Shown here: piece after piece, positions 6,167 through 61,169 of the stretch
How positions within the stretch are numbered: position 1 is the first letter of the stretch
How the letters are laid out: each line of letters starts with the position of its first letter
Assembly (NCBI GenBank): GCA_022562495.1
Contig: JADFPE010000003.1
Location: 1 to 62,034, forward strand
Origin: Acidobacteriota bacterium
GTDB lineage: Bacteria > Acidobacteriota > Vicinamibacteria > Vicinamibacterales > UBA8438
Direction: 5' to 3'
Length of the DNA stretch: 62,034 nt
Notes under the pieces: generated by a model
What the model was told of the DNA's origin: nothing
Database searches by the model: none
Seen by the model: only the letters and a program-made list of their open reading frames with translations
Position numbers and translations under genes: made by a program

Positions 6167-6684
6167 CATCGGCCCGCGTGGTGGCCAATAGCGACGGCGG
6201 CGCACGGGGCAATCCTGGCCCCGCGGGGTACGGCGTCCGAATAGAACACGCGACCGGCGAGCTCACACACGAGTTGCACGCCCCGATCGGCGTGGCGACA
6301 AACAACCTCGCCGAGTATCGCGGCGTGATCGCAGCGCTGTCCTACCTGGCGGAACACGGCTACGATGACACGCCGATCCGCTCGGACTCGCAACTCTTCG
6401 TGCGCCAGATGCAGGGACGCTGCCGCATCCGGCATCCTGGTCTGCCACCCCTCTATCGGCAGGCCAAGGCATTCGCAGCCCAGCTCGGGCACGTGAGGCT
6501 CGAGCACGTGCGCCGCACCGAGAACCCAGAGGCGGACCTGCTGTCCCACGTCGCGATGGACGTGCAGGAGGCACGGGTGGGCGAACGCGCGAAGGAGTCA
6601 GCAGTCGGAAGTCAGACATCAGAAGAAGGCCGGCGGGCTGCACCGTCTTCTGGTCGAGCCTCGGGCTCCCCATCGACTGAATAG
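6163..6684 (+). CDS. ribonuclease H family protein with repeat-encoded C-terminal tail
   Basis: Internal ATG overlapping the upstream stop (ATGA). SDGGARGNPGPAGYG...TNNLAEYRGVIAAL...SDSQL motifs match RNase HI-type catalytic D/E/D positions. About the last 30 codons run into a heptad array. Confidence 0.85.
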   Translation: MTSARVVANSDGGARGNPGPAGYGVRIEHATGELTHELHAPIGVATNNLAEYRGVIAALSYLAEHGYDDTPIRSDSQLFVRQMQGRCRIRHPGLPPLYRQAKAFAAQLGHVRLEHVRRTENPEADLLSHVAMDVQEARVGERAKESAVGSQTSEEGRRAAPSSGRASGSPSTE

Positions 6685-6902
6685 CCCCTGTTCACCACGG
6701 ATGACCAGCCCACCCACAGACGCGGTACGCGCTCTCACTGTCTCGATCCTCACGCCGGACACCTCGCGGCGCCGGCTCGGGCAACGCCAGTTACATCGGC
6801 GCCGTCGACCCCGACAGACCGTCTGCTGGCGAGGCCCTCCGCTGTTCTCCTACCGTCCACCTTCTACCTGCGGCCTTCTGCGTTCTGCCTTCTGACTGCT
6901 CG
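6594..6902. repeat. family-B heptad arrays in inverted orientation flanking a ~230-bp spacer
   Basis: GGAGTCAGCAGTCGGAAGTCAGACATCAGAAGAAGG (6594-6629) and CCTTCTACCTGCGGCCTTCTGCGTTCTGCCTTCTGACTGCTCG (6860-6902). Confidence 0.55.
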
Positions 6903-7085
6903 AGCATTGGCCGGGGAACCTGCCGTTGACATTCCACCCAGGACGCTCCGCTCCCGCGTCGAACGTGAGCTCGGCAACCCCAAATCGCACAGGCAGTTGG
7001 CGCCGTCCAGCGACCGACGGCCAGTGTGGCCGACGCCTTGCATCCATGCCGGTCCAGCAGATACCAGACGCGAGGAGGATGACGG

Positions 7086-7403
7086 ATGATCCAACTGGAC
7101 GAGACGGTCGCGATCAACGTCCTTCCGGCCGATGACAGGGGTCCGGCAGGTAAGCTGGCCGACATGGAGCTGCACTTCACCGCCGGAGCCCTGGAAGGAC
7201 TCAAGCTGCTTGGGTTCACGGTGTGGGAGGGCCGGGGCGGCAAGGGCCCAAGCCTGAGCCTGCCGTCCCGCCAGTACGTCGTCAACGGGGAACGCCGCAG
7301 CTACACGTTGCTCCGGCCGAGCGGCGAGGCGCCTGCGCAGGACACGTTGCGCGACACCCTCCTGGCGGTATTCGCGGACCACGTGCCGGACGCGGCGTCC
7401 TAG
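7086..7403 (+). CDS. hypothetical protein, tentatively SpoVG-like
   Basis: GAGGAGGA precedes the ATG. The pattern KLAD.EL.F....L.GLKL.GF.VWE..GG.G.S.S.PSRQY..NGE.R.Y.LLRP loosely resembles the SpoVG core (memory-based alignment only). Confidence 0.55.
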   Translation: MIQLDETVAINVLPADDRGPAGKLADMELHFTAGALEGLKLLGFTVWEGRGGKGPSLSLPSRQYVVNGERRSYTLLRPSGEAPAQDTLRDTLLAVFADHVPDAAS

Positions 7404-7445
7404 CAGCCGAGGCTGTCGGTAGCCTGCCAGCGCGCCTTCGGCGCT

Positions 7446-8654
7446 TCACTCGGCGTGCTGCCTGAGGAACGCGGGTACGTCGAGATCGGACTCCAATGTC
7501 GCGTCGACGTCCAGCACGGTCTTACCGGCCTCGTCCGTGTGGCTCGACGCCAGCACCGGCAGCTCGATCAGCGCCCGCCGGGACACCGTGAACCGCGTAC
7601 CTGCGGCGCGCTCGAGCGGCTCCTCCTGTTGCCAAGACGCGTATTGGTGAAGGTCGACCGGCGTCTTCGCGGTGGCGCGTTCGGTCGCGGGCTCGGCGCC
7701 CTCCCGGTCGAAGCCGGTCGCGATGACGGTGATCTTGACCTGGCCTGTCATGTCCGGGTCGATGACGGCGCCGAAAATGATGTTGGCGTCCTCATGCGCC
7801 GCAGCCTGGATGATGGAGGTGGCCTCGCTGACCTCGAAGAGCGACAGATCCGGTCCACCGGTCACGTTGATGATGACCCCGCGTGCGCCCTCCACCGACG
7901 CGTCCTCCAGCAGCGGGCTCGAGATGGCCTTGGTCGCGGCGTCGACCGCCTTGGTCTCGCCGTGACCGACTCCCGTGCCCATGATGGCCAGCCCCATGCC
8001 GGACATGATAGTCGTCACGTCGGCGAAGTCGAGGTTGATGAGCCCCGGCACGAGGATGAGGTCCGAGATGCCCTGGATCGCCTGCCGGAGCACGTCATCG
8101 GCAGCGGCGAAGGCATCGGACATGGTCGTCGAGCGGTCGATCGAGGCCAGCAGCCGCTCGTTTGGTATCGTGATGACGCTGTCGACGCACGCCCGGATCT
8201 CTTCGAGCCCCCGCTCCGCCTGCACGGCGCGCCGGCGTCCCTCGAACGGGAACGGCTTGGTGACGACGGCTACGGTCAACGCGCCCAACTCACTCGCCAG
8301 GTTCGCGATGACCGGTGCCGCCCCGGTGCCAGTGCCGCCACCCAGCCCGGTCGTGACGAACACCATATCGGCCCCGTCGAGGGCAGAGATGATCTGCTCG
8401 GTGTCCTCGAGCGCTGCCCGCCGACCGACGTTCGGGTCACCGCCGGCGCCGAGCCCATTGGTGAGCTTGGCGCCGATCTGCAGGCACAGGGGCGCCGCAT
8501 TGTGGCTCAGCGCCTGTGCGTCCGTGTTCACCACGATGAACTCGACGCCACCGAGCCCCGAGGCCACCATCCGGTTCACCGCGTTGCTCCCGCCGCCTCC
8601 CACACCGACGACCTTGATCCGCGCGCCAGAGTGGTCAGTGTCCTCGATCGTCAT
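7446..8654 (-). CDS. ftsZ: cell division protein FtsZ
   Basis: [17 protein letters not shown] and [15 protein letters not shown] tubulin signatures. Start chosen at MTIEDTDH (codon 42 of ORF 7446..8777); an alternative start is at 8732. Confidence 0.96.
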
Positions 8655-8879
8655 GCGTAGGTCCTGGTCCCGCTCGGATCCCGGGCGAGTCACCGCGTCA
8701 CCGAGTCGATCCGTCAACCCTGTAGGTTCCATCTGCCCCCCTTGTGCTCGTCGATGGCGAGTCGCCAAACGTGCCACTCCGACATGCCCTCCCTACCACC
8801 GAATCGCCTTGTCCGTCCTTGTCCTGCTGAACGCTGCCAAGCTGGACATCGTGCTCTCTCCCGACGCCGGAAGATGTCG

Positions 8880-9113
8880 GGCCCCGCGTCGCGGGGCTGT
8901 GAGGTATGCCCTCTCGCGATGCGGCGCCGAACCGTGGCGACGTGGTTCGCGGCCCAGCATCGCTAGCCGTGTGTGACCAGGTCTCATCTGAACGCCTTGG
9001 TCACATGTCGCCGGCAACACACGGCGAGCCCCCGCGTAGCGGGGCTGTGAGGTATGCCCTCTGGCGATGTGGAGCCGACACATGTCGAGTGGTTTGTGGC
9101 GCAGCATCGCTAG
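8880..9113. repeat. two ~85-bp direct repeats in the ftsA-ftsZ spacer
   Basis: 8880-8966 and 9027-9113 both contain CCCCGCGT(C/A)GCGGGGCTGTGAGGTATGCCCTCT(C/G)GCGATG...GCATCGCTAG. Each unit holds internal hairpins. A separate inverted repeat lies between them (GTGTGACCAGG...CCTTGGTCACAT). Confidence 0.75.
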
Positions 9114-10345
9114 AGGAAGTCCTTGAACAGCCCCTTGACACGCCCGGCCAGACGGCTGAGCGTCCCGACACCGACCAGCCGCTCTTGCTCCCGCAGCTGG
9201 TTGCGATGGGCATACTTGACGAGTCCGACGCTGGTCGCAAAGGACGGGCTGCTCACATGGTCGGTGAGCCCCCCGATGTCGACCGGACACCCGCGGCGAA
9301 TCGGCAGGTCGAAGATTTGCTCTGCGATCTCGGCCATCCCCTCCAGCAGGGCGCCACCGCCGCACAGCACGAGGCCGGAATGCAACGACCGCTCGTATCC
9401 GGCGCGGCGAATCTCGTCCCACAGCGCGTGGAAGATCTCCTCGGCCCGGGGTTGCAGGACCTCCGAGAGAATCCGACGGGACATGACACGAGGCTGACGG
9501 CCACCGACGCTGGCGACCTCGATCGTTTGATCCTCGTCGACCAGCGAGGCCAGCGCGCACCCGGAGCGACGCTTGGTCTTCTCCGCGTCCGGGATCGGCG
9601 TCCGGAGCCCGACCGCGATGTCGTTGGTGAAGTGATCGCCGCCCATCGCGACCACACCGGTGTGCCAGAGGCTGCCGTGCTCGAAGATCGCGAGGTCGGT
9701 GGTGCCGCCGCCGATGTCCACCAGCGCCACACCCAATTCCCGCTCATCGGCGGTCAACACCGATTCGCTGGCGGCGAGCTGCTCGATGACCGTGTCGACC
9801 ACCTTGACCCCCGCCCCGTTCACGCACGCGACGATGTTCTCCGTCGTCGAGGTGCTGCCGGTGACGATGTGCACGTTCACCTCGAGCCGGGTCCCCATCA
9901 TCCCGACCGGGGCCCGGATGCCATCCTGTTCGTCGACCACGAAGTCCTGGGGCAGGACGTGCAAGATCTCGCGGCCCGCCGGCAACGCCACCCCCTTGGC
10001 AGCGTCGATGGCCCGACGCACGTCGTCGCGTGTGATCTTGCGGTTCTTGCCGGCCACCGCCACCACGCCGCGACTGTTGAACGCCTTCAGATGCGCCCCG
10101 GACAGCCCCAAGTGCACGGCATCGATTTCGACACCGGCGGTCAGTTCGGCCTCCTCGATCGCCTTCTTGATCGATTCGACCGCCGCCTCCAGGTTGACCA
10201 CGACCCCACGACGAATACCCTGAGCCTCCACCACTCCAATGCCGATGATGTCCAACCGTCCCTCCTCGAGAGCCTCGGCAACGATGGCGGCCATCTTCGA
10301 GGTGCCCACATCGAGCCCAACGAGATAATGCTCCTTGCGTGCCAC
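9110..10345 (-). CDS. ftsA: cell division protein FtsA
   Basis: 411 aa, actin-like ATPase motifs (VGLDVGTSK, DIGGGTTD), located between ftsQ and ftsZ. Confidence 0.95.
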   Translation of the reverse strand: MARKEHYLVGLDVGTSKMAAIVAEALEEGRLDIIGIGVVEAQGIRRGVVVNLEAAVESIKKAIEEAELTAGVEIDAVHLGLSGAHLKAFNSRGVVAVAGKNRKITRDDVRRAIDAAKGVALPAGREILHVLPQDFVVDEQDGIRAPVGMMGTRLEVNVHIVTGSTSTTENIVACVNGAGVKVVDTVIEQLAASESVLTADERELGVALVDIGGGTTDLAIFEHGSLWHTGVVAMGGDHFTNDIAVGLRTPIPDAEKTKRRSGCALASLVDEDQTIEVASVGGRQPRVMSRRILSEVLQPRAEEIFHALWDEIRRAGYERSLHSGLVLCGGGALLEGMAEIAEQIFDLPIRRGCPVDIGGLTDHVSSPSFATSVGLVKYAHRNQLREQERLVGVGTLSRLAGRVKGLFKDFL

Positions 10346-10379
10346 GCATCCTCCGTTCGCGGCCCCACGCCGCGTCTGT

Positions 10380-10547
10380 GTGTCTCGAGTCAGCAGCTCG
10401 CGAACATGTCATCCCGCCGTGGCGGTGGTGGGCGTGTCGCTCAGCAGGGTTGAATACTGCCGGTGTACTCGTCGCGCCGTGCGATGGCCAGACGCGACAT
10501 CAGTGCGACGCCGGAACATGTGTCCGCGAGTTGCTGACTCGGGACAC
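10380..10547 (+). repeat. family-A palindromic repeat (copy B)
   Basis: Arms GTGTCTCGAGTCAGCAGCTCGCGAACATGT / ACATGTGTCCGCGAGTTGCTGACTCGGGACAC around a diverged core (...TGAATACTGCCGGTGTACTCGTCGCGCC...). Overlaps the last 48 nt of ftsQ. Confidence 0.75.
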
Positions 10548-11417
10548 GACCGCACCACGGCCGACGCCCGGATCAACTGAGTGCGGGACCCCGGCGCTCG
10601 CCGGTGCCGGGTGTCCGACCGGCCCGACATACACCCGAGGGTCGAACCGCAGGTCGACGTAGTCGATGTCGGCCACACGCGATCGGAGCGCGGGCCTCAG
10701 CTCGGCATAGAATCGCAACCGCTCGAAAAATCGGTCGCCGCCCAGGTGCAACAGCGCCGGATCGTCGTTGAGCAGCACCACGGCGTCATACGGGTCCGAC
10801 ACGTCGATCTGCGAGATGAGGTCGAGCACCTCCGGGTGGGGAGCCAGCTGCTCCAGCAACCGTGTGACCAACGCCATGCGACCCGGATCGACGACCGTGG
10901 CCCCCGTGTCAGGGACGGCGAGACCGTCGATGATCGGCAGGTCGAACTCGGCGAATCGCGGCCCGTGACGGTCGATGACCGTACCCCGCTCGTCGACAAG
11001 ATAGAGCTGATCGGCGAACCGGGCGGCGGCGATCGGACGACGCTCCGTCACCCGCACCTCGACCGTCGACGGCAAGATGCGCCGCAGGGTCCCGTCGCGC
11101 AGCCAGGGCGACGCCATGAGGTGCTGCCGGTGGGTCTCCAGATCGACGGCCAGGATGTTCTCGCCGAGGAGCCCCGACACCAGCGCCAGCACCTCGCTCT
11201 CCGACAGCTGGTCGTTCCCGCGCACGATGATGTGGTCCACGACCAAGAACGGCGCCACCAGCAGCCGCGCCACCGCCTGATACCCGCCGACGACGAGTGC
11301 GCCGATCAGACAGCATCGCCGAGCCATCCGCAGCCACCGCCGGGCCGCGCCGCGGGTGCGTCGCGCCGGGCGTCTGGCCCGTCGAAAGCGTCTGTCGGTG
11401 TGCATGTGGACGCTCAT
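10500..11417 (-). CDS. ftsQ: cell division protein FtsQ (POTRA domain)
   Basis: N-terminal Arg-rich segment plus TM helix, then VVDHIIVRGNDQLSESEVL POTRA-like region. ATGA overlap with murC. The C-terminal ~16 codons lie inside repeat copy B. Confidence 0.85.
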   Translation of the reverse strand: MSVHMHTDRRFRRARRPARRTRGAARRWLRMARRCCLIGALVVGGYQAVARLLVAPFLVVDHIIVRGNDQLSESEVLALVSGLLGENILAVDLETHRQHLMASPWLRDGTLRRILPSTVEVRVTERRPIAAARFADQLYLVDERGTVIDRHGPRFAEFDLPIIDGLAVPDTGATVVDPGRMALVTRLLEQLAPHPEVLDLISQIDVSDPYDAVVLLNDDPALLHLGGDRFFERLRFYAELRPALRSRVADIDYVDLRFDPRVYVGPVGHPAPASAGVPHSVDPGVGRGAVVSRVSNSRTHVPASH

Positions 11418-12901: not shown

Positions 12902-12926
12902 CCCGCACGCGCCACGCTGGGGTTAC

Positions 12927-13023: not shown

Positions 13024-13093
13024 TGTGACGCGGACCACGTCGCCCGCTCCGTCGTGCGCCCGTCACTCTCCGTCGGACCGCTCGACCCGTGGC

Positions 13094-14188: not shown

Positions 14189-14191
14189 CTC

Positions 14192-15636: not shown

Positions 15637-15826
15637 ACTCGCCTGCCACCGAGACGCGGGCCGGATCACACAACGGTGCGCGACCCGTACCCTGTCGCGC
15701 ACCGCAGCGCCGTGTGCTGGACCGTGCCGGCCCTCTCCCAGTGCCACCAGGGAGCAGCCGGAGCGTGGATCAGCCCGTGCTAATGTCCGGGACGCTTCGA
15801 CCCGACACACTGGCTACAACCGGACC

Positions 15827-15953
15827 GTGAGCAGTCAGCAGTCACCAGTCGAGCTTGAGGTGAAGACATCGACCTCGCAGACCGGGGCAGCCTGCGTTCC
15901 CAGCGGCCGACTCTTCACCGCCGCTACCCGACTGGTGACTGCTCACTGCTCAC
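15827..15953. repeat. family-B heptad-arm palindrome
   Basis: GTGAGCAGTCAGCAGTCACCAGTCGAGCTTGAGGTGAAGAC ... GACTCTTCACCGCCGCTACCCGACTGGTGACTGCTCACTGCTCAC. Arms show 7-nt periodicity (GAGCAGT CAGCAGT CACCAGT). Contains the murD stop codon. Confidence 0.7.
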
Positions 15954-17322
15954 GCGTCTCGCCGACCTCCTCCTCGAGGTGGGCTACCGCCTGCGTAAAC
16001 ACCCGTCCACGCTCGGCGTAGTCCCGGAACATGTCCAGGCTGGCGCATGCGGGCGCCAGCAGCACGGTGCCGCCGGGCGACGCCAGCCCGTAGGCCACCC
16101 GGACCGCGTCGGCGAGCGACCCGGTCTCGACCACACGCACGACCGCGCCGAGCGCGTCTCGGATCCGTCCGCACGCCTCGCCGATCACGACGACCGCATC
16201 GGCCCGGGACGCGAACAGGGGCGCCAACGTCTCGAGCGAGCCTCCCTTGAAGCGGCCGCCCATGATCACCACCACGTGGTCGCCGCAGCTCTCTACCGCG
16301 TGTCTGGCCGCCTCGACGTTGGTGGCCTTCGAGTCGTTGACGAACCGCACACCCCCTACCTCGCCGACCCGCTGCAGGGCGTGCTCGAGCCCAGTGAACC
16401 GGTCCACGGCCCGCGTCATGTCCCCGGCCGACACGCCAACCAGGTTCGCGACGGCACTGGCCGCCAGGACATCTCCGAGCAGATGGCGACCCAGCAGATG
16501 CACCGCCGATAACGGAACGAGCGGCTCGTCGCCGGCCGGACTCCGGCGCACGATCGTGTCGCCAGCCACCACCACGCCCTCGGTGAGCGGCTCGCTCAGC
16601 GCAAAGGACACCCGCCGCGCCGCACTGTCCCGCGCCAGCCTCAGCACCTCGGGATCATCAGCGTTGACGACGAGGGTGTCCGACGACTGCTGGTTCGCGA
16701 ACACCCGGGCCTTGGCCGCCGCGTACGCCTCGATGTCGGCGTGGCGGTCGAGATGATCCGCATACAGGTTCAGGAACACCGCGATCCACGGTCGGAACCT
16801 CGTGGTCAGCTCGAGCTGGAAGCTCGACACCTCGACCACGTGGATCACGTCCGCCGTGGACTGCTCCACTTGGGTGCTCAGCGCCGTCCCGACATTGCCG
16901 CCCACCAGCACCAGACATCCCCCCGCCTCGAGCATCCGTCCAAGGAGCACGACTGTTGTCGACTTGCCCTTCGTACCGGTCACGGCCACGACCCGACCAC
17001 GGAGCCAGCGTGACGCCAGCTCGATCTCGCTGATGATGGGAACCCGCGCCCGGCGGGCCGGCTCGAGCGCGGCCAGCGACGGGGGCACACCGGGGCTGAG
17101 CACCACCAGATCGGCACGCTCGAAGGTCTCGGGCCGGTGCCCGCCGAGCTCGAGGTCGACACCCAGCTCAGACAACCGCTCGACCTCCGCGCCGACGTTG
17201 CTCCGCATCTCGGTGAGGGTGACGCGCGCCCCGCGGCCGGCCAGCAACCGGGCCGCGGCGACACCGCTGCGCGCGGCACCGACCACGACGACGTTGGACC
17301 CGCGCACGGAGAACTCGGTCAT
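15943..17322 (-). CDS. murD: UDP-N-acetylmuramoylalanine--D-glutamate ligase
   Basis: Starts MTEFSVRGSNVVVVGAARSG (codon 213 of ORF 15943..17958). GTKGKSTT motif. ATGA overlap with the mraY stop. Confidence 0.95.
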   Translation of the reverse strand: MTEFSVRGSNVVVVGAARSGVAAARLLAGRGARVTLTEMRSNVGAEVERLSELGVDLELGGHRPETFERADLVVLSPGVPPSLAALEPARRARVPIISEIELASRWLRGRVVAVTGTKGKSTTVVLLGRMLEAGGCLVLVGGNVGTALSTQVEQSTADVIHVVEVSSFQLELTTRFRPWIAVFLNLYADHLDRHADIEAYAAAKARVFANQQSSDTLVVNADDPEVLRLARDSAARRVSFALSEPLTEGVVVAGDTIVRRSPAGDEPLVPLSAVHLLGRHLLGDVLAASAVANLVGVSAGDMTRAVDRFTGLEHALQRVGEVGGVRFVNDSKATNVEAARHAVESCGDHVVVIMGGRFKGGSLETLAPLFASRADAVVVIGEACGRIRDALGAVVRVVETGSLADAVRVAYGLASPGGTVLLAPACASLDMFRDYAERGRVFTQAVAHLEEEVGETREQ

Positions 17323-26516: not shown

Positions 26517-26645
26517 CAGGTTGCCGAAACACGCGCTGAGGTTGCTCCTTACTCCTGCCTGCCCTGAGCGGGGCGCGTCGTGGCGTCGTCGAAGGGGGAG
26601 CGGGCCGGGGTGAGGGCCAACGGTCATCGAGACAAGAGGACGCGC

Positions 26646-27623: not shown

Positions 27624-27796
27624 GACGCGCCCGCATCCGATTCGCCTGCGGGCCGTGGGCGTCGGGCTTCACCCTTCAGGACGCTGGCGGCGGAACCCTC
27701 CCGCCTTCGCCAAGGCTTCGGCGGACAGGCCGGCTGCTCCTGTCTCCTGCCTGCTGAGCCTGCTGTGTGCGAGCCGTTCGTCGTATACTGTAAACG

Positions 27797-33207: not shown

Positions 33208-33376
33208 TCTCAGAAGTCAGGAGGCAGAAGACAACTCGAGGCCGCCGCGGGTGTCACAGGCGGCAACGCCCAGAACCGCTCCGGGCTGCGGCCTACGTGA
33301 GCAGCAGGGCGGTGATAGAAGCTGGTGAAGCCTTCATTGTTCTTCTGACTTCTGACGTCCGACTTCTGACGTCTCA
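33208..33376. repeat. family-B heptad arrays in inverted orientation (convergent gene ends)
   Basis: CTCAGAAGTCAGGAGGCAGAAGACAAC (33208-33235) and GTTCTTCTGACTTCTGACGTCCGACTTCTGACGTCTCAG (33339-33376), flanking ~100 bp. Confidence 0.7.
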
Positions 33377-39405: not shown

Positions 39406-39909
39406 ATGGATAATCCGCTGGTCCAGCCAGATCCAGGACTCTTCATCTGGACCATCCTCACCTTCTTGGTGCTGCTCGGTCTGCTGGCCAAGTTCGCCTG
39501 GGGCCCGCTGCTGAAGGCGCTCGATGAACGGCAGGAGACGATCCGGAAGTCGCTGGACGACGCCGACGAGGCCACGCGCGAGCTGGAGCGGCTGCAACAG
39601 GAGTCGGCGCGGATTATCGCCGAGGCTCACGCCGAGGCACAATCGATCGTCGCGAAGAGCCGGGCCGCGGCGGAAACGGTCCGGGAAGACCTGAAGCAGA
39701 AGGCCAAAGAAGAGGCGGGCACCCTGGTCCGCGGCGCCCAACGTCAGATTCAGCTCGAGACGGCCCGGGCGATCCAGCAGATCCGCCACGAGGTGGTCGA
39801 CCTGTCGCTTACGGTCGCGTCGAAGCTGATCAAGAAGAACCTGACGCAGGAAGACAACGACGCGCTGATCCAGGACTCGCTCAGCCAGATCGACGCGTCG
39901 CGGAACTGA
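39406..39909 (+). CDS. atpF: F0F1 ATP synthase subunit b
   Basis: N-terminal TM helix, then a long charged helix (LLKALDERQETIRKSLDDA...). Confidence 0.9.
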   Translation: MDNPLVQPDPGLFIWTILTFLVLLGLLAKFAWGPLLKALDERQETIRKSLDDADEATRELERLQQESARIIAEAHAEAQSIVAKSRAAAETVREDLKQKAKEEAGTLVRGAQRQIQLETARAIQQIRHEVVDLSLTVASKLIKKNLTQEDNDALIQDSLSQIDASRN

Positions 39910-39916: not shown

Positions 39917-40175
39917 CACTTCAAGAAGTCAGAAGGCAGAAGAAAATCGGCGGCTACGCCAGCTTTCTTCAACCGTTTTTCAACAACGCTACTCTCGCCC
40001 GGGCCGGCGACCGTGCTGGTCCCGGCTCAACCTGGTCTCTCCCGCGTCCACGCCGAACCGACCCGGTCGGGGGAAACGTCCGGTAGCGCGAAGCACAACC
40101 CTGAACAGATAGTCGGCGACGCCCTTGAGCTTCCCCTGACTTCTGACTTCTGACTTCTGACTTCTGACTTCTGAG
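39917..40175. repeat. family-B heptad arrays in inverted orientation; right arm is a near-perfect 7-bp tandem repeat
   Basis: CACTTCAAGAAGTCAGAAGGCAGAAGAAAATC (39917-39947) and (CTGACTT)x5.7 at 40136-40175. Lies between the convergent atpF and nuoN. Confidence 0.8.
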
Positions 40176-40178: not shown

Positions 40179-41657
40179 CTATTGCCCCCCCACCACCGTG
40201 GCGGCGGTAATCCCCTGGAGGGTGCGAGCGGCCACCTCGGCCTGCTCGAAGAGAAACTGCGGGTAGATCCCGAGCACGACCGTGCCGAGCAGCGCGACAC
40301 CGAGCGCGACTTTCATGGCGGGACCGATGACGATCGGTGACCCCACCGGCTCCTCCTGGTTGATCCACATGAAGACGACGACCCGGATGTAGTAGTAGAT
40401 CGACAATGCGCTGTTGGCGACGGCGATCACCGCGAGCCAGATGAAGCCGGCATCGATAGCGGCGCCAAACAGCCACATTTTGCCCATGAACCCGGCGGTC
40501 GGCGGGATGCCACCCAGTGACAACATGAAGAACCCCATCGCAAACGCGGCCAACGGGTTGCGCTTCGACAACCCGCTGAGGTCCTTCAGCTCGTCGCCGA
40601 TGATGTCGCTGCGACGCTGCGCCGTCACGATGGCGAACGCGCCGAGCTGCATGAACAGGTAGACCCCCAGATACAGGAGCATCGCGGCCACGCCACGCTC
40701 GGTGCGGACCACCACCCCGATCAGCAGATACCCGACGTGGGCGATCGACGAGTAGGCGAGCATCCGCTTCAGGTTGCTCTGGGTCAGCGCGGCAATGTTC
40801 CCGACCGTCATGCTGATCACGGCGAGCACGTAGAACAGCAGCGACCATTCCTGCGCGAGTGCCGGCAGTCCCACGACGAAGATCCGTAGCAGCATCGCGA
40901 ACGACGCCGCCTTGGACCCGACCGACAGGAACGCCGTCACCGGCGTCGGCGCACCCTCATACACGTCCGGCGCCCACATATGGAACGGCACCGCGGCGAT
41001 CTTGAACCCCATGCCGGCACCGACGAGGATCACCGCCAGCACGAGCACCAGGCTCGTGTCCTGCCCGCGCAACGCCGCCGCGATGCCCGCCAGGCTGGTC
41101 GTGCCGGTCACCCCGTAGATCAGCGACATGCCATAGAGCAGGATGCCCAGCGAGAACCCCCCGAGCAGGAAATACTTGACGGCCGCCTCGTTCGAACGCG
41201 GGTTCGGTTTGAGAAAGCCCACCAGCACGTAGAACGACACCGCCATCGTCTCGAGCCCGATGAACAGCGTGATCAGCTCGACCCCGCTCGCCATGAACAT
41301 CATGCCGACCGTGGCGCACAGAATCAGGAAGTAGTACTCGCCTACCCTGATCCCCTCGACCCGCAGATACGGCGCCGACATCAACAGCGTCAACGCGGCC
41401 GACAGCAGCACGATCACCTTGAAGAACGCCGCGAAGCTGTCGATCGCGAGCAGCCCGCGAGCCGCGGTCACATCGAGACCGAAGAACCTGACCACGAGCA
41501 CCAGCGTGACCGCCACGGTGGCGAGCGCCGTCCACAACAGCAGCCCGTCGCGCCGCGGCACCAGCACCGACAGCGACAGCAGCAGCATCGCGCCGCCGAT
41601 CAGCACCAGCTCGGGCAGGATGTAGAGGAAGTCGGCAGCGGAAAACCCGGCGGGCAT
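40179..41657 (-). CDS. nuoN: NADH-quinone oxidoreductase subunit N
   Basis: 492 aa, antiporter-like polytopic protein, last gene of the nuo operon. Confidence 0.93.
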   Translation of the reverse strand: MPAGFSAADFLYILPELVLIGGAMLLLSLSVLVPRRDGLLLWTALATVAVTLVLVVRFFGLDVTAARGLLAIDSFAAFFKVIVLLSAALTLLMSAPYLRVEGIRVGEYYFLILCATVGMMFMASGVELITLFIGLETMAVSFYVLVGFLKPNPRSNEAAVKYFLLGGFSLGILLYGMSLIYGVTGTTSLAGIAAALRGQDTSLVLVLAVILVGAGMGFKIAAVPFHMWAPDVYEGAPTPVTAFLSVGSKAASFAMLLRIFVVGLPALAQEWSLLFYVLAVISMTVGNIAALTQSNLKRMLAYSSIAHVGYLLIGVVVRTERGVAAMLLYLGVYLFMQLGAFAIVTAQRRSDIIGDELKDLSGLSKRNPLAAFAMGFFMLSLGGIPPTAGFMGKMWLFGAAIDAGFIWLAVIAVANSALSIYYYIRVVVFMWINQEEPVGSPIVIGPAMKVALGVALLGTVVLGIYPQFLFEQAEVAARTLQGITAATVVGGQ

Positions 41658-47609: not shown

Positions 47610-47612
47610 TCT

Positions 47613-53622: not shown

Positions 53623-53693
53623 GGAGGCCCGAGAAGTCAAGAGTCAGAAGCACGTCGGACGGCGTCGCCGGCTTCCACTTGACACCACGCACA

Positions 53694-55046
53694 ATGGACC
53701 TGCTGTTACTGGGCATGAGCCACCACACGGCGCCGGTCGACCTGCGAGAGCGGGTCGATTTCTCGAGGCGTGGCGTGAGCGAGGCGTTGCGGGAGCTGGC
53801 CGCGTGCCCGTCTCCGACCGAGGCCGTGGTGCTGACGACCTGCAACCGCGCCGAGATTTACGTCGCCTGCGAGGACAGCGAGACCACCCGACACGGCCTG
53901 GAGCGGTTCATGAGCCGGTTCCACGATGTGCCCGAGCACGACCTCGCGCCGCATCTCTACGTCCACACCGGCGCCGACGTCGCGCGGCACCTGTTTCGCG
54001 TGGCGGCGGGTCTCGACTCGCTGGTCGTGGGCGAACCGCAGATCTTCGGACAGATCAAGGACGCGTATGCCGTCGCGTCGCGCGAGCGGCGGACCGGCGC
54101 CCTGTTGAACAAGCTGTTCCCCTGGTCGTTCGCCGTCGGCAAGCGGGTGCGAGCCGACACCGGTCTGGGCGAAGGGGCGGTGTCGGTCAGCTACACGGCG
54201 ATTTCGCTCGCACGAAAGATCTTCGGCAGCCTGAAGGCGCTGAGGGTGCTCGTGGTCGGCGCCGGCGAGATGGCCGAGCTGACCGCCACGCATCTACGGT
54301 CACAACAGGTGGGACGGATCGGCGTGACCAGTCGAACCCGGGCCCGGGCCGACGCGCTGGCGCGCAAGGTTGACGGGACCGCGGTCGACTGGACGGCGGT
54401 CGACGACGAGCTGCTCGAGGCCGACATCGTCGTGACCGCCACCGGCGCCTCGACGCCGATCATCAGTACGACCACCATCGACCGTATCATGCGCGCCCGG
54501 CGCAACCGACCGTTGTTCATCATCGACATCGGTCTGCCACGCGACGTGGAACCGGACGCCGGCGACCTGGAGCAGGTGTTCCTCTACAACATCGATGACC
54601 TGCGCTCGATCGTCAGCGAAAACCTCGCGCGGCGGCAGGAGCAGACCGCCCGGGCCGAAGCGATGGTCTCCAACGAGGTCGAGGCGTTCGTGGTGTGGCT
54701 ACGGTCACGCGGCACGATTCCGACCGTGGTGGCCCTGCGACGCCGGTTCGAGTCGATTCGGCAGGCCGAACTGAAGCGCTTCGAATCGAAGCTGAGCGGG
54801 CTGTCGCCGGAGGCGCGCGCACGGGTCGACGAGGTCACCCAGCTCCTGGTCCAGAAGCTGCTGCTCACGCCGACGGAGCGGCTGAAGACGGCCGCCGACG
54901 AGGCCACGGCCGCCCAATACGCGGAGATCATCACCCAGCTCTTCGGTCTGGCTGCTGACGCGCCGACCGACGCGCCCGCCGCCGCACCGGCCACCCGCGC
55001 ACCCTCGCCATCACCCTCGACATCGAAGACCCCGGTAGCGTCGTGA
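53694..55046 (+). CDS. hemA: glutamyl-tRNA reductase
   Basis: MDLLLLGMSHHTAPVDLRE, TCNRAEIY and VVGAGEMAE motifs (the ORF track opens at TTG 53679). Confidence 0.93.
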   Translation: MDLLLLGMSHHTAPVDLRERVDFSRRGVSEALRELAACPSPTEAVVLTTCNRAEIYVACEDSETTRHGLERFMSRFHDVPEHDLAPHLYVHTGADVARHLFRVAAGLDSLVVGEPQIFGQIKDAYAVASRERRTGALLNKLFPWSFAVGKRVRADTGLGEGAVSVSYTAISLARKIFGSLKALRVLVVGAGEMAELTATHLRSQQVGRIGVTSRTRARADALARKVDGTAVDWTAVDDELLEADIVVTATGASTPIISTTTIDRIMRARRNRPLFIIDIGLPRDVEPDAGDLEQVFLYNIDDLRSIVSENLARRQEQTARAEAMVSNEVEAFVVWLRSRGTIPTVVALRRRFESIRQAELKRFESKLSGLSPEARARVDEVTQLLVQKLLLTPTERLKTAADEATAAQYAEIITQLFGLAADAPTDAPAAAPATRAPSPSPSTSKTPVAS

Positions 55047-56038
55047 CCCCGTTCAGGCTCGGCACCCGCGGCAGCGACCTCGCGCGCTGGCAAGCCAACA
55101 CGGTCGCCGCTGCGGTCCGCCACGCGAGCGGGCGTGACTGTGAGCTGGTGGTCATCACGACGACCGGCGACCGCCTGACCGAGGTATCAGTGTCCACGGT
55201 CGGCGGCAAGCGGATGTTCGTCAAGGAGATCGAGCAGGCGCTCACACGCGGAGACATCGACCTCGCGGTGCACAGCGCCAAGGACATGCCCGCCGACCTG
55301 CCGGACGGGCTGACGATCGCAGCGGTCCTGCCCCGTGCGGATCCGCGGGACGCGGTCGTGTTGTCCGTGGGCGCCACGCCGGCACCGGACCTGTCGATGC
55401 TCGAGCTGGTGGCGGCACAGGGCAGGGCGCCACGCATCGGCAGCGGCAGCGTCAGACGGGTCGCCCAGCTGAGACGGCTGTTACCGACCGCTCAGTTTCA
55501 CCTCGTGCGCGGCAACGTCGGGACCCGTCTCCGCAAGCTGGACGACGGCGGATACGATCTGCTGATCCTCGCCGCCGCCGGTCTCAAGCGGCTCGGGTTC
55601 GCCGACCGCATTTCGGCAACCATCGACGTGGCTGCCTGCGTGCCGGCACCCGGTCAGGGCATCATCGCGATCGAAACACGCGCGGATGACCAGGAGACGC
55701 TCGTGGCGCTGGCGCCCGTCAACGACCCCGCGGCGAGCGCCGCGCTCACGGCGGAACGCGCGGTGGTGAGAGCGCTCGGGGGCAGCTGTCAGGTGCCGAT
55801 CGGAGCCTTCGCCGACACCCGGGACAACCGGTTGCATCTGCGAGCGGTGGTGGCGTCGCTCGACGGGTCGCAGATACTGCGACGCGAGGCCAGTCACCCG
55901 CTGGCGTCGGCCCACGCACTCGGGGCCGCGGTCGCGGAGGGTCTGCTCGAGGATGGGGCGGGACCGATGCTGCAAGCCGCGCAGGACAGCGCGGCGCAGG
56001 ATACAGGAGACGGGAGACAGGAGACCGGAGCCACCTGA
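55043..56038 (+). CDS. hemC: hydroxymethylbilane synthase (porphobilinogen deaminase)
   Basis: LGTRGSDLARWQA, HSAKDMP and RGNVGTRLRKL motifs. GTGA overlap with the hemA stop. The C-terminal tail QDTGDGRQETGAT comes from a heptad array. Confidence 0.93.
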   Translation: MTPFRLGTRGSDLARWQANTVAAAVRHASGRDCELVVITTTGDRLTEVSVSTVGGKRMFVKEIEQALTRGDIDLAVHSAKDMPADLPDGLTIAAVLPRADPRDAVVLSVGATPAPDLSMLELVAAQGRAPRIGSGSVRRVAQLRRLLPTAQFHLVRGNVGTRLRKLDDGGYDLLILAAAGLKRLGFADRISATIDVAACVPAPGQGIIAIETRADDQETLVALAPVNDPAASAALTAERAVVRALGGSCQVPIGAFADTRDNRLHLRAVVASLDGSQILRREASHPLASAHALGAAVAEGLLEDGAGPMLQAAQDSAAQDTGDGRQETGAT

Positions 56039-56114
56039 TGGCTTCGCCGTCATCCTGTCGTGTCACCGGCTCGCCGGTCGTCGGCCAGCCCGGCTCCAAG
56101 GCAACGCGCGTCAG

Positions 56115-57665: not shown

Positions 57666-57818
57666 CGAGGCTCCGCCTCGTTCGCTGAGCTTTTTTCACA
57701 GCCCCGCTATGCGGGGATTAGACTCCGTGAACGGAAGCTATCGTGGTGAGAGCAAAAGAAACGCGACCGAAACTCGACGCAATTGTCACGAGACACGTTG
57801 TTCAAGGAGTCTAGTGAG

Positions 57819-58895
57819 ATGGTGACGAAAGACGAACGACCGGCCCCTGACACGGCCGACCGCGACGTGCCGGCAGACGACACGGACCGGCTCGCGCTGA
57901 TGCGCCGGCCCCGTCGGCTGCGCCGCACGGCGGGGATCCGCGCCCTGGTGCAGGAGACGCGGCTCTCGGCGGACATGCTCGTTTACCCCCTGTTCGTTTG
58001 TGACGGCACCGGTGTCCGGCGCGAGGTCGTGTCGATGCCGGGGGTCCACCAGCTGTCGGTCGACGAAGCGGTGCGAGAAACCCTCGCCGCGCGTGACGAC
58101 GGGGTGCGGGCGGTGCTGCTGTTCGGGCTGCCGGCGCACAAAGACGAGACCGGCTCGTCTGCCGCGGACCCCGCCGCACCGGTGCAGTCGGCGATCCGCG
58201 CGATCCGCGACCAGCTCGACGACGTGACGGTCATCACGGACGTGTGTCTGTGTGAATACACCTCACACGGGCACTGCGGCATTCTCGAGGGAGAACGGAT
58301 CCTCAACGACGTCACGGTCACTCATCTCGTCGCGACGGCGATCTCCCACGCCGAAGCGGGCGCGCACATCGTGGCACCTTCCGACATGATGGACGGCCGC
58401 GTCGGCGCGATCCGCCGCGGACTGGATGCGCGCGGGTTCGAGGAAGTCGCCATCATGTCGTATGCGGCGAAGTACTGCTCCGCCTTCTATGGGCCGTTCC
58501 GGGATGCAGTCGACTCGGCGCCGGCGTTCGGCGACCGGCGCACTCATCAGATGGACCCGGCCAACGTCGAGGAGGCTCTGCGTGAAGTGGAGCTCGACCT
58601 CGACGAGGGCGCGGACATCGTCATCGTCAAGCCGGCGATGCCGTATCTGGACGTGATCCGTCGGGTGAAGAGCACATTCCACCAGCCGACGGCCGGCTAT
58701 CAGGTGAGCGGCGAGTACGCGATGCTGAAGGCGGCGGGGCGTCTCGGGTGGATCGAGGAGTCGCGTGCCATGCTGGAAAGCCTGACCGCCATCCACCGGG
58801 CCGGAGCGGATATCATCATCACCTACTACGCGCGCGAGGCGGCGCGGGCCCTAGCAGGCGCTCCGAGTTCTCCCTCAGGGAGAGAGCCGGGGTGA
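57819..58895 (+). CDS. hemB: porphobilinogen synthase (delta-aminolevulinate dehydratase), Zn-type
   Basis: ATG after AAGGAG. RRPRRLRR, Cys-rich DVCLCEYTSHGHCG, catalytic Lys context VKPAMPYLD. Confidence 0.94.
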   Translation: MVTKDERPAPDTADRDVPADDTDRLALMRRPRRLRRTAGIRALVQETRLSADMLVYPLFVCDGTGVRREVVSMPGVHQLSVDEAVRETLAARDDGVRAVLLFGLPAHKDETGSSAADPAAPVQSAIRAIRDQLDDVTVITDVCLCEYTSHGHCGILEGERILNDVTVTHLVATAISHAEAGAHIVAPSDMMDGRVGAIRRGLDARGFEEVAIMSYAAKYCSAFYGPFRDAVDSAPAFGDRRTHQMDPANVEEALREVELDLDEGADIVIVKPAMPYLDVIRRVKSTFHQPTAGYQVSGEYAMLKAAGRLGWIEESRAMLESLTAIHRAGADIIITYYAREAARALAGAPSSPSGREPG

Positions 58896-59026
58896 GGGCC
58901 AAGGGCATGCTCGAACACGCTGATCGGCCATACCGCGGCGACGACGTCCAGTGACCCGGGGAAGCGTGACCTCCCCCGAGCCTGTCCTTGTCTGCACCGC
59001 CGCCCGCCGAGTGGGCTCCACCGGTG

Positions 59027-59506
59027 TCACTCGGCGGCGACGATCAGAATCATGTCGAGGGCCGTCTTGTCGGCCGGTAGCTCCGTCTCGCCTGCCGGGT
59101 AGTCGTTGGCGTCGAGCAGATACGCCACGACGTCGGTGTACTCCTCGTCGGTGAGGCGGCCGGGCCCATCCTCCGGCATCGACACCCTGATCCGCTCAAA
59201 CAGCGTTCCGACCGGCAACTCGGTCCAGAACACGATGAAGTCGCTGCCGGCGATGCTGGGCGCCATCTCGCCACCCTTCAGTTCGGGACCGTGACACGAC
59301 TCGCAGTTCTGGGTGTAGACTCGGCGCCCGCGGCGCGCCTGCGCGGCGGTGAACACCCCATCGAGCACGGTGCTGGTCGTCTCCTGCAGACCGGCCAGGG
59401 CTCCCTCTGCGGTCGCGGCCGCGGCGGCGCTCTCGGTTGCCAGTCCGCTCACCGACGCCCACGCCAGCACCAGCCCGACACACCCTGCGGTCAGCATTCT
59501 CTTCAT
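59027..59506 (-). CDS. c-type cytochrome (monohaem, secreted)
   Basis: Starts MKRMLTAG after GGAGAGGAGAG. Signal peptide, a single CESCH haem-binding motif, and a downstream Met candidate (SMPEDGPG). Confidence 0.85.
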   Translation of the reverse strand: MKRMLTAGCVGLVLAWASVSGLATESAAAAATAEGALAGLQETTSTVLDGVFTAAQARRGRRVYTQNCESCHGPELKGGEMAPSIAGSDFIVFWTELPVGTLFERIRVSMPEDGPGRLTDEEYTDVVAYLLDANDYPAGETELPADKTALDMILIVAAE

Positions 59507-59689
59507 CCGTTCTCTCCTCTCCATCAGCCGAACAGACAGCCGATCCACGTCGTTCCCGTGTCATTCTGGCATTCCGAATCGGACCCAATCAACCCGCCGA
59601 CACCTTGGCGGAGGCAGGCGCCAGCAAGAATCATGTCCCGGTGGCCCGAGGCTCCGCATGCGTGGACCCCATGATATCGTTCCACCCTG

Positions 59690-61042
59690 ATGAGTCCAGT
59701 CCACCGCGGTGCATCCCGCCGCCTGTTCATCGAGGCGAAACGAATCTTGCCCGGCGGCGTCGACAGCCCGGTCCGCGCGTTCTCGGCGGTAGGCGGCACG
59801 CCGCCGTTCATCCGGCGGGCGCGCGGCGCGCGAATACTGGACGAGGACGGTCGGTCCTACGTCGACTTCGTCATGTCCTGGGGTCCGCTCATTCACGGTC
59901 ATGCGCCGGCCGGACTGATCACGGCGCTCGCTGACGTGGCCGCCCGGGGCACGAGTTTCGGCGCACCGACCGCGCTCGAGGTCGACCTCGGGCTCGCCGT
60001 GCGCCGGCTGATGCCCTCGGTCGAGCGCGTCCGGTTCGTGAACTCCGGCACCGAAGCGACAATGAGCGCCCTGCGTGTGGCACGTGCCGCCAGCGGTCGC
60101 GACCGGGTCATCAAGTTCGCCGGGTGCTATCACGGTCACTGCGACGCTTTCCTCGTCCAGGCGGGCTCGGGAGCGACCACGCTCGGTGTGCCAACAAGCC
60201 CGGGCGTCTCGCGTGCCGTGGCGGCCGACACCCTGGTCGCCCACTATAACGACCTCGGCTCGGTCGACCGGCTCTTCCGGGCGCACCGGGCTCAGATAGC
60301 GGCCCTGATCGTCGAGCCGCTTGCGGGCAACATGGGGGTCGTGCCCCCCGCGGCCGGATTCTTGGAGGGTCTCAGAACGCTGTGCGACCGCCACGGGACC
60401 ATCCTGATCTTCGACGAGGTGATCTCCGGCTTCCGGGTCTCGCCCGGCGGCGCACAGGAACGGTTCGGGGTCAGGCCCGACTTGACCTGTCTGGGCAAGA
60501 TCATCGGCGGCGGGTTGCCGGTCGGCGCCTACGGCGGACGGACAGACCTCATGGAGCAGGTTGCGCCTGCGGGCCCGGTGTATCAAGCAGGAACACTCTC
60601 GGGCAACCCGCTCGCAATGACCGCCGGGCTCTGGGCGCTGTCGCAGCTCTCACCCGCCCTCTACGCACGTCTGGATCGACTGGGACAACGGCTGGCGACC
60701 GGGCTGGCCGATGCCGCCCGGCAGGCTGGACTCGACCTCCAGGTGAACGCCCACGGCTCGGTGCTCACACCGTTCTTCACCGCCAGTCCGGTGCGCGACT
60801 ACCAGAGTGCGACCCGGACTGACACCGCCGCCTATGCGCGGTTCTTCCGGGGCATGCTCACCCGCGGCATCTACCCGCCGCCCTCGCAGTTCGAGGCGTG
60901 GTTCCTGTCCGGGGCGCACACGACCCGTCACATCGACCTCGCGATCGAGGCCGCCCGGGCCACGATGCACGCGATGCGCCGACGGGCGAGAACGGCCCGG
61001 AAGAAGAGTGGAGCCAGGAGGCAGGAGACAGGAGACGCATGA
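59690..61042 (+). CDS. hemL: glutamate-1-semialdehyde 2,1-aminomutase
   Basis: GGVDSPVRAF, FVNSGTEATM, LIFDEVISGFR and LGKIIGGG (PLP Lys). The extra basic tail ends ...RRQETGDA, encoded by a heptad array. Confidence 0.95.
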   Translation: MSPVHRGASRRLFIEAKRILPGGVDSPVRAFSAVGGTPPFIRRARGARILDEDGRSYVDFVMSWGPLIHGHAPAGLITALADVAARGTSFGAPTALEVDLGLAVRRLMPSVERVRFVNSGTEATMSALRVARAASGRDRVIKFAGCYHGHCDAFLVQAGSGATTLGVPTSPGVSRAVAADTLVAHYNDLGSVDRLFRAHRAQIAALIVEPLAGNMGVVPPAAGFLEGLRTLCDRHGTILIFDEVISGFRVSPGGAQERFGVRPDLTCLGKIIGGGLPVGAYGGRTDLMEQVAPAGPVYQAGTLSGNPLAMTAGLWALSQLSPALYARLDRLGQRLATGLADAARQAGLDLQVNAHGSVLTPFFTASPVRDYQSATRTDTAAYARFFRGMLTRGIYPPPSQFEAWFLSGAHTTRHIDLAIEAARATMHAMRRRARTARKKSGARRQETGDA

Positions 61043-61169
61043 AGGCGTCGCCAGCGTCTGTGTCACAGCCCGCGGTGCCCGCCACCAAGAGGGAACGCGA
61101 ACAGGACTCCCGACACCTGCTGCAACCGTCCCGGTCGGTCCCGACGCCAGTGATATCATCCTGGTAGCC

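Follow-up and report, generated by a model that had tools for sequence, protein, structure and literature searches.

What are the tandem heptanucleotides that face one another at gene ends in a 62,034-nt stretch of an Acidobacteriota genome (contig JADFPE010000003.1, lineage UBA8438)? The stretch, hereafter the window, is contig C266 of a draft metagenome-assembled genome (MAG) that we designate G000 (4.74 Mb, 66.8% G+C). A first-pass annotation had described its heptamer arrays, (CAGNAGN)n, as inverted pairs sitting at gene 3′-ends. We think, with moderate confidence, that the purine-rich (CAGRAGN)n arrays are the terminal arms of a family of cassettes resembling the intervening sequences (IVSs) of 23S rRNA genes. 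A complete cassette would consist of a purine-rich heptamer array, a small PF05635 gene (bAvd-like) and a complementary (NCTYCTG)n array; it would be seated exactly in a gene junction, a few nucleotides past the upstream stop codon and a few nucleotides before the downstream start codon.

The arrays themselves are far above chance, as both a shuffle test and Tandem Repeats Finder (TRF) confirmed. A search of the window for (CAGRAGN)x3 with no more than two mismatches gave 16 matches, with 0.00 expected from 100 dinucleotide-preserving shuffles. TRF reported period-7 arrays at 6860–6894, 15830–15850, 15938–15953, 33342–33374, 39924–39942, 40136–40174, 55997–56030 and 61010–61036; among them are (CTGACTT)x5.6 with 100% matches (40136–40174) and (CAGGAGA)x4.9 (55997–56030). 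The genome-wide scan for such periodicity that had been suggested was run with arrays defined as (CAGRAGN)x3 matching at 16 or more of the 18 specified positions: G000 contains 334 of them, while most scrambled motifs gave 1–13 and one GC-rich variant gave 84. These controls, together with the shuffles, rule out chance or base composition as the source. The commonest period-7 units found by TRF in G000 are CAGAAGT (66), CAGGAGA (65), CAGGAGG (55), CAGGAGT (37) and CAGAAGG (32). Arrays of three, four and five units are about equally numerous (111, 102 and 98, respectively), and 17 arrays have six units. The presence of like elements at orthologous sites in independently assembled MAGs argues against assembly artefacts.

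The link to a gene is seen on another contig of the same genome. The sole PF05635 gene of G000 (23S-rRNA-IVS protein, four-helix-bundle) is located at C57:6669–6970 and is frameshifted, giving 52.7 and 45.3 bits in two frames. It is bracketed by AAGGAGACAGGAGTCAGGAGTCAGGAGACAGGAGA at 6617–6651 (units AAGGAGA, CAGGAGT, CAGGAGT, CAGGAGA and CAGGAGA) and by a complementary array at 7004–7037. The whole cassette spans 6617–7037, and in its predicted RNA fold (−181.7 kcal/mol, z = −6.45) the two arrays form a near-perfect closing stem of ∼40 bp. In a congeneric species, G003, the orthologous cassette is intact (L240:1440–1862): the upstream stop codon is followed by 6 nt, (CAGGAGG)x4, 7 nt and the ATG of a frame of ∼129 codons, at L240:1474–1860, that ends inside the 3′ array, after which 6 nt remain to the ATG of the next gene. 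The last AGGAGG units therefore lie at the would-be ribosome-binding site of the gene, and the cassette fills the junction from stop codon to start codon. In both G000 and G003 the gene downstream of the cassette begins with a PHP-like N-terminus (MYIELHASSAFSF...).

Outside G000 we considered 30 PF05635 loci in 14 other Acidobacteriota genomes. Complementary period-7 arrays were present on both sides of the gene at 18 loci and on at least one side at 24; units of the CAGRAGN type were seen at 9. The two-sided arrays stand ∼200–300 nt from the gene centre. The arm unit is specific to the cassette, even within one genome (GGGATCA, AGTGATA, GAGTGAC, GGTTTCT, CAGGCGA, CGGGATT and others). As a control, 30 loci of Y1 transposases from ten array-rich genomes were scored for CAGRAGN arrays only (not for other period-7 arrays), and even a two-unit array was found in 0/30.

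Bracketing by heptamers extends to other phyla. The protein family is very large (at least 7985 of 8000 scored candidates at E ≤ 1e-10), and the cassette protein is 66–67% identical to proteins from Cyanobacteriota and Planctomycetota MAGs. At the copy in the low-G+C Cyanobacteriota MAG (67% protein identity) an upstream TAG leads straight into (GGAGTCA)x5.1, which extends up to the ATG; at its other end the gene runs into (CTCCTRA)x9.7, and both arms are made of the same CAGGAGT unit. A metagenome copy, situated before a DnaE-type polymerase gene, has (AGTCAGG)x3.3 and (ACTCCTG)x7.9 as arms; the Planctomycetota copy has a 3′ array only. At two loci, L271 and L272, the PF05635 cassette is directly upstream of a DnaE-type polymerase gene, and the junction in G000 and G003 is probably of this kind too; an imuB|dnaE2-type junction may thus be a recurrent site of the cassette.

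The copies in the window are all gene-less. We call an array without a facing partner a solo, and an array together with its hairpin core a module. The module is polar: three to five purine-rich heptamers are followed, at a fixed +8/+9 nt, by a GC hairpin. Read on the CAGRAGN strand, a GGCTTCGCC-type core stands 3′ of the array in 159 of the 334 arrays, in 132 of the 159 at exactly +8 or +9 nt. The module consensus, ...CAGRAG-GAAGCC-GGAG-GGCTTC-GCC(A/G)GCTTCTG, is predicted to fold into a nested hairpin, the final units of the array being paired with the descending CTTCTG (−24 to −27 kcal/mol, z −4 to −6). In a solo module a GGAG loop connects the array with a complementary arm that is short and degenerate (GGCTTCGCCRGCTTCTG); 5′ of the array there is a loose RTGCTC box. 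We found no Rfam family for any module.

The 22-nt core occurs 221 times in G000 at up to five mismatches, compared with 11–38 times for shuffled cores, and an array, strict or degenerate, is nearly always upstream of it. Only two of the 221 cores are exact. Deviations in the hairpin lack compensating changes: for both alternative pairings the paired fraction is that expected if positions varied independently, ruling out a hairpin structure kept up locus by locus. The copies therefore look like decaying descendants of a master sequence. We also saw a hairpin variant in which a nested 25-nt insert (CCGCCGAAGCCTTGGCGAAGGCGG) lies between the array and a GGGAGGGCTTCGCC core, making a hairpin within a hairpin; it is present at ∼77 sites in G000, including 27691–27735 of the window.

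Seven inverted pairs had been listed in the window. Two facing arrays are present in four of them: 6592–6626/6860–6901, 15827/15953, 33211–33238/33334–33375 and 39923–39950/40132–40173. In the three others the supposed right arms (53671–53683, 56047–56069 and 61045–61066) are not arrays; given the nested fold of the module, they represent the descending strand of the hairpin that belongs to each array. Among the four true pairs, the one at 15827–15953 (unit CAGCAGT) falls outside the dispersed family and is a single-copy conserved RNA hairpin, discussed below. The two solitary arms reported earlier do exist, at 26544–26564 and 27736–27756, both as degenerate or short arrays on the minus strand.

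Genome-wide, a facing partner within 300 nt was found for only 93 of the 334 arrays (∼28%). Neighbouring arrays within 600 nt of each other comprised 44 facing (+,−) pairs and 3 in (−,+) order. Solos are true halves: a facing core was seen beside 0/128 of them, which rules out that they are decayed full elements. The unit type is correlated between the two arms of a pair (r = 0.67), and a pair's arms resemble each other a little more than permuted arms do (p = 0.004). This does not extend to the innermost 30 nt, where own arms match no better than permuted ones; long-range pairing there was therefore rejected.

The position of the arrays relative to genes follows a simple rule. Most arrays (289/334) are intergenic, and the outer (5′) end of the array lies at a median distance of 12–17 nt from the adjoining open reading frame (ORF), at a stop codon of the same strand or at a start codon of the opposite strand; the hairpin side of the module is ∼110 nt from the next gene. 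Genes were predicted with a home-made codon-usage caller, with which stop codons are exact and start codons soft. The outer end abuts the ORF regardless of the strand of the latter. The distance from stop codon to first unit has a sharp peak at 11–15 nt (83/174 cases). Stop-codon usage at arrays equals the genome background, which rules out an element that supplies one particular stop codon.

Among unpaired intergenic arrays, 138 are in sense orientation and abut a stop codon, whereas 64 are antisense and abut a start codon; in co-directional spacers the ratio of sense to antisense is 102:41. The claimed preference for positions 3′ of stop codons thus holds for the majority, with about one third of the solos going the other way. 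The claimed siting between convergent genes did not bear out: arrays occupy 9.6% of convergent and 9.4% of co-directional spacers (and 5.5% of divergent ones). Descent from a junction-seated cassette would account for this geometry. With the cassette seated in the junction, and its position kept by gene-less pairs and solos, the outer end would touch an ORF whichever its strand; sense arms 3′ of stop codons would be in excess because the 5′ arm of the cassette is sense to the upstream gene. No gene family recurs beside arrays in an all-against-all BLASTP of 521 neighbouring genes, apart from ordinary paralogue families. On contigs longer than 15 kb the purine-rich strand of solos coincides with the locally G-rich strand in 74/105 cases, 20/33 of those antisense to their neighbour included; this excess hints at a replication-strand bias, with local GC skew on draft contigs being a weak proxy.

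One could suppose instead that the modules are intrinsic terminators lacking a U-tract, or bidirectional insulators, at gene 3′-ends. A stable GC-rich hairpin does stand directly past many stop codons, and T is mildly enriched 3′ of the stem; canonical terminators made of a hairpin and a U-tract are at chance level in the window between 26 and 46 kb (8 versus 7.3 expected), hence another type of terminator may be needed. The noted absence of T-tracts was corroborated, as a U-tract (five or more T in the 8 nt 3′ of the stem) is present in only 4/159 modules. On the other hand, ∼31% of the sense solo modules in co-directional spacers are, hairpin included, at most 60 nt from the next start codon; copies in the window fill junctions within the ccsA-hemA-hemC-cobA/hemD gene run; and the 64 antisense solos lie just upstream of start codons. 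Terminators at such operon junctions are implausible because efficient termination would silence the downstream genes. As convergent spacers are not favoured and the hairpin shows no compensatory changes, we consider a terminator or insulator role quite unlikely.

The arrays could also be an independent feature of the host, either simple repeats born by slippage or sites for a host factor, where PF05635 cassettes merely happen to land. Solos far outnumber gene-bearing copies and have no facing core; the same positional rule was described for unrelated heptamers of Xanthomonas and Nostoc with no cassette noted (PMC4692102); the plateau at three to five units, followed by a drop at six, resembles a length constraint. 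Against this, each PF05635 gene has a heptamer unit of its own, even within one genome, while the 67%-identical gene in the low-G+C cyanobacterium carries the same CAGGAGT arms, and therefore the arms appear to travel with the gene. Also, in G003 and in the cyanobacterium the 5′ array stands at the would-be ribosome-binding site and the frame ends in the 3′ array. Two candidate functions of host sites were rejected. The targets of CsrA in CsrB are CAGGAxG repeats; a CsrA sponge or CsrA-binding sites are ruled out here by the absence of CsrA (PF02599) from all five genomes of the genus. G-quadruplexes are ruled out by the absence of G-runs: the units CAGGAGA, CAGGAGG, CAGAAGT and CAGAAGG contain no GGG and thus provide no four G-tracts. 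Overall, we regard a host feature independent of the cassette as unlikely.

A third possibility is that the modules are repetitive extragenic palindromes (REPs) or doublets of these (REPINs), copied by a REP-associated tyrosine transposase (RAYT, of the Y1 HUH type), with the arrays being a lineage-specific appendage. High-copy extragenic hairpins, with inverted doublets beside decayed singlets, depleted in divergent spacers and decaying from a consensus, would fit, and termini of known REPs abut or supply stop codons (PMC3733652). Yet there is no GTAG or CGTC tag, and the 5′ side is a heptamer array. None of the four Y1 loci of G000 has an array within 1.4 kb (one has an array ∼1.5 kb away, three have none within 3 kb), the 30 control Y1 loci have none within ∼1.5 kb, and two array-rich genomes, G004 and G033, lack a Y1 gene. 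Around the only RAYT-like gene of G000 (C130:28031) there is a REP of another kind, GCAGGCCTGAAGGCCTGC. Copying by a RAYT is, in our opinion, very unlikely. Compared with a miniature inverted-repeat transposable element (MITE), whose parent insertion sequence encodes a transposase, the parent that has the same arms here encodes a four-helix-bundle protein, not a known transposase.

Two more repeat families of G000 came to light. The RAYT-like Y1 gene (C130:27683–28614, with an HLH motif and YVLNNPVRA) is at a contig end, and its own REP, GCAGGCCTGAAGGCCTGC, with ∼128 matches genome-wide, is a third repeat family unrelated to the heptamer modules. A second family of ∼78 copies (e.g. C264:9796 and C72:6548) has the form (stop codon)TAGAC-GGGGCTTCGCCCCGAACCCC..CGCGG..GCGCTC..GCGGGGCCC; a GGGGCTTCGCCCC mini-hairpin is common to this family and to the heptamer modules.

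The IVSs of 23S rRNA genes offer the closest model for how the proposed cassette could behave. The IVS of Coxiella burnetii encodes the S23p protein, and its terminal inverted repeats pair into a stem of 28 bp; downstream of a putative Shine–Dalgarno (SD) sequence (AGAAGA) come tandem heptamers (GACAGAT), variable in number among strains, and RNase III cuts at the first repeat (PMC4990558). As in the IVSs with an S23p ORF in Coxiella burnetii (helix 45) and Leptospira (PMC4990558), a small PF05635 ORF is enclosed here by inverted repeats with the potential for a long stem; immediately 5′ of it are heptamers, variable in number, and a purine tract resembling an SD sequence, and the ORF decays (the frameshift in G000). 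Unlike the rRNA IVSs, the examined PF05635 and array copies are located between or at the ends of protein-coding genes, including operon junctions, rather than at helix 25 or 45 of 23S rRNA; copies number in the hundreds per genome, most of them without a gene, and the arms are much longer, with three to five or more units on both sides. Cutting by RNase III was demonstrated for Coxiella and is an extrapolation here.

By analogy with the Coxiella IVS, the paired arms would form a stem of 20 to ∼40 bp in the transcript, and solos would form a hairpin. RNase III (a gene for which is present in G000 at C142:6822–7211) would cut the stem, and such cutting would let an insert sit in an operon without blocking the flanking genes. 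The length of arrays may drift by slipped-strand mispairing. The complement of G000 would then be one gene-bearing copy and ∼300 gene-less remnants, these being ∼45 inverted pairs and ∼240 collapsed solos.

Several observations weigh against descent of the arrays from such a cassette. The link between window copies and the gene-bearing cassette goes through shared arms and not through alignable internal sequence. The solo core (GGAGGGCTTCGCC) is restricted to the genus, and the gene-bearing cassette shows no such core; solos may thus be a derivative that was amplified on its own. One congeneric genome, G004 (89% complete), has many modules and no PF05635 match. For the window pairs, minimum free energy (MFE) folding gives only a modest gain over shuffles (z = −1.5 and −2.4). 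We found no target-site duplication (none is visible when the filled and the short orthologous sites at 39.9 kb are compared), no recent identical copies and no transposition enzyme. Finally, distances to start codons are soft because of the home-made gene caller.

Turning to individual copies, the gene-less pair at the left end of the window consists of a left arm at 6592–6653 (plus strand) and a right arm at 6815–6901 (minus strand). The former is a degenerate array of five units (AAGGAGT, CAGCAGT, CGGAAGT, CAGACAT and CAGAAGA) with a decayed hairpin (GGCCGGCGGGCTGCACCGTCTTCTGG), lying within the 3′ tail of an RNase H-like ORF (6094–6684); at the orthologous site, G004 has (CAGAAGT)x4 with a hairpin close to the consensus. 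In the latter, the array at 6860–6901 (GAGCAGT, CAGAAGG, CAGAACG, CAGAAGG and so on) is followed by the core CGGAGGGCCTCGCCAGC at ∼6824–6841. Further on, two copies on the minus strand are solitary. A degenerate array of three units (GGGCAGG, CAGGAGT and AAGGAGC; 26544–26564) with no recognisable hairpin core is in the spacer between ychF and an epimerase gene, where G004 and G003 have plus-strand arrays and G002, the third congeneric genome, has none. A solo module at 27691–27756 has its array at 27736–27756 (CAGCAGG, CAGGAGA and CAGGAGC), followed by the nested-insert hairpin variant (AGCCGGCCTGTCCGCCGAAGCCTTGGCGAAGGCGGGAGGG...).

The gene-less inverted pair at 33211–33375 begins 11 nt past the stop codon of a rhomboid gene, with a plus-strand array at 33211–33238; the facing minus-strand array (33334–33375) has the core GGCTTCACCAGCTTC. 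In the predicted MFE fold these arrays close the element, most of their length being paired. The other such pair, 39923–40173, is situated between convergent genes, atpF (stop codon at 39909) and a nuoN-like gene (stop codon at 40179). Its left array at 39923–39950 has a hairpin at 39938–39970, its right array at 40132–40173 is (CAGAAGT)x5.6 on the minus strand, and only the outer part of the arrays is paired in the MFE fold.

Three solo modules, all on the plus strand, are associated with heme biosynthesis genes. The first (53631–53684; array 53631–53651, hairpin 53647–53675 of the form GAAGC...GGCGTCGCC...GCTTC) makes up the whole 56-nt spacer between a cytochrome-c-assembly (ccsA-like) gene and hemA; the orthologous spacer has five units and a consensus hairpin in G003 and a decayed copy in G002. 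The second (55997–56059) is at the hemC|cobA-hemD junction and has a hairpin at ∼56009–56059 (−31.9 kcal/mol); its array, 55997–56030, is translated as the final codons of hemC, whose stop codon TGA (56036–56038) is in the hairpin loop. The third (61008–61062) is at the end of hemL (class-III aminotransferase), with an array at 61008–61036 and a hairpin with the GGCGTCGCC core that includes the hemL stop codon (61040–61042). The hemC (55043–56038), hemL (59690–61042) and RNase H-like (6094–6684) ORFs thus read through an array and end inside or past the repeat hairpin; because these ORFs run into the repeat, their C-terminal tails are repeat-encoded and vary between species.

Comparison with G002, G003 and G004 was made via syntenic contigs (genes with 80–92% nucleotide identity). 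Elements are found in the same spacers of the congeneric species, differing in the number of units and even in unit type. At the 3′-end of nuoN, G000 has (CAGAAGT)5.6, G004 has (CAGGAGN)3 in a 44-nt spacer with the right half only, and G003 has (CAGGCTN)3. At the 33.2-kb site the element is complete in G004, with a hairpin that fits the consensus, and decayed in G000; G003 has a (GGCTTCN) array and G002 has nothing. We conclude that the elements are old and have been lost and remodelled, with arrays changing fast.

Outside the genus the picture is patchy. The combination of array and GGGCTTCGCC is confined to the window's own genus among 31 relatives. The array alone, (CAGRAGN)x3, is present in 36 of 301 Acidobacteriota genomes (31 of 186 genera), heavily so in about nine unrelated families; a Pyrinomonadaceae MAG has 122 matches and another MAG 290, and the sequence between the arms is lineage-specific. 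The reversed pattern (GARGACN)x3, used as a control, gave 756 matches in one Acidobacteriota genome (G134) and was noted in G251, G100 and G299 as well: lineages elsewhere have undergone massive expansion of heptamer families of their own. A MAG labelled Chlamydiales (50% G+C) has, at L032 7560–7750, a complete facing pair (CAGAAGG)n ... GGGGCTTCGCCCC ... (NCTTCTG)n right after a tRNA gene; either the element crosses phyla or the sequence was binned there by contamination.

The hairpin between murD and ftsW, which had been listed as the second inverted pair, is a separate conserved RNA outside the dispersed array family. It is a single-copy RNA hairpin of 127–134 nt (15822–15955, minus strand) located between the stop codon of murD (15943–15945, inside the 5′ arm) and the start codon of ftsW (15810); the arms of the 127-nt palindrome (15827–15953) are 7-nt periodic (GAGCAGU, GAGCAGU, CAUCAGU). 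Of 41 genomes of the family, 39 have this hairpin. Aligning 38 sequences showed 96% of the cells to be paired and double changes in 26 of 49 pairs (14.4 ± 2.0 when shuffled), a level of covariation reached in 0/500 shuffles; partners slid by 1–3 columns pair in only 30–47%. A covariance model gave one match per genome, with 98–146 bits, in all 21 sampled Vicinamibacterales genomes, the antisense scoring far lower; it found nothing convincing elsewhere in the phylum, and Rfam gave no match. The gene order murD-hairpin-ftsW is kept in another family of the order. Given its 7-nt periodic arms, one could speculate that this hairpin may be an anciently fixed relative of the heptamer elements.

Similar repeats have been reported in other bacteria. 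The heptamers GGGAATC of Xanthomonas and GGGGA(C/T)T of Nostoc are mostly intergenic, under-represented between divergent genes, and have an ORF near the 5′ side of the repeat regardless of orientation; in Xanthomonas there are 70–75 convergent inverted pairs, and repeats are retained between species with changes in length (Rehm et al. 2015, PMC4692102). The arrays described here share with them tandem 7-nt units, intergenic location, the ORF-proximal polarity rule, depletion between divergent genes and convergent pairs (PMC4692102); the differences are the absence of G-runs and of quadruplex potential, a hairpin locked to the array and a gene-bearing parent cassette, a connection not reported for the repeats of Xanthomonas or Nostoc. 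The TAACTGA repeats of Beggiatoaceae, Cyanobacteria and Bacteroidetes are likewise abundant intergenic tandem heptamers, patchy across phyla and placed beside ORF borders; unlike the arrays here, they are in forward orientation just upstream of starts and almost never form inverted pairs, and no hairpin or cassette was described for them (MacGregor 2015, PMC4679880). With REPs, bacterial interspersed mosaic elements (BIMEs) and REPINs (PMC3116915, PMC3733652, PMC6006769) the modules have in common that they are abundant extragenic hairpins, occurring as inverted doublets and singlets, often touching stop codons and persisting at orthologous sites; they differ in having no GTAG/CGTC tag, no RAYT flanked by the repeats, and arms made of tandem heptamer arrays.

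By rotation and complementation the Nostoc heptamer GGGGA(C/T)T is identical to STRR1, one of the short tandemly repeated repetitive (STRR) sequences. STRR sequences have been catalogued since ∼1990. To our knowledge, neither an origin nor a mechanism is known for tandem heptamers at gene borders, and rRNA IVSs with an S23p gene are called elements of unknown origin. The STRR-like family proposed for this genome is real: it is placed at gene borders, often in facing pairs, and has no U-tracts. As the first-pass annotation had suspected, we found no paper on heptamer arrays in Acidobacteria, nor any on CAGRAGN arrays or on a connection of dispersed heptamer arrays with PF05635 cassettes. There are precedents for gene-border heptamer arrays, for hairpins resembling REPs and for IVSs in rRNA; the CAGRAGN arrays and their PF05635 link appear to be new.

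A broader extension can be offered tentatively. Intergenic heptamer arrays in general (STRRs, GGGAATC of Xanthomonas, perhaps TAACTGA of Beggiatoa) could possibly be arms, or orphaned arms, of one cross-phylum family of junction-seeking PF05635 cassettes. Such cassettes would be tolerated in operons owing to RNase III, their bAvd-like protein may bind the arms, and the murD-ftsW hairpin could be a domesticated copy. The bAvd protein is a pentamer; next to this one may set the plateau of array lengths at three to five units.

The analysis brings together heptamer arrays and S23p-type cassettes, in Acidobacteriota and in at least one cyanobacterial MAG. A cassette origin would account for the otherwise puzzling contact of an array's outer end with ORFs of both strands; RNase III cutting the arms once they are paired is offered as a testable mechanism. 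For gene annotation there is a warning: at sites such as hemC, hemL and the RNase H-like gene, the tails of ORFs and their stop codons are supplied by repeat DNA. The very large four-helix-bundle family, whose function is unknown, would gain a candidate role as the protein of a junction-seated cassette.

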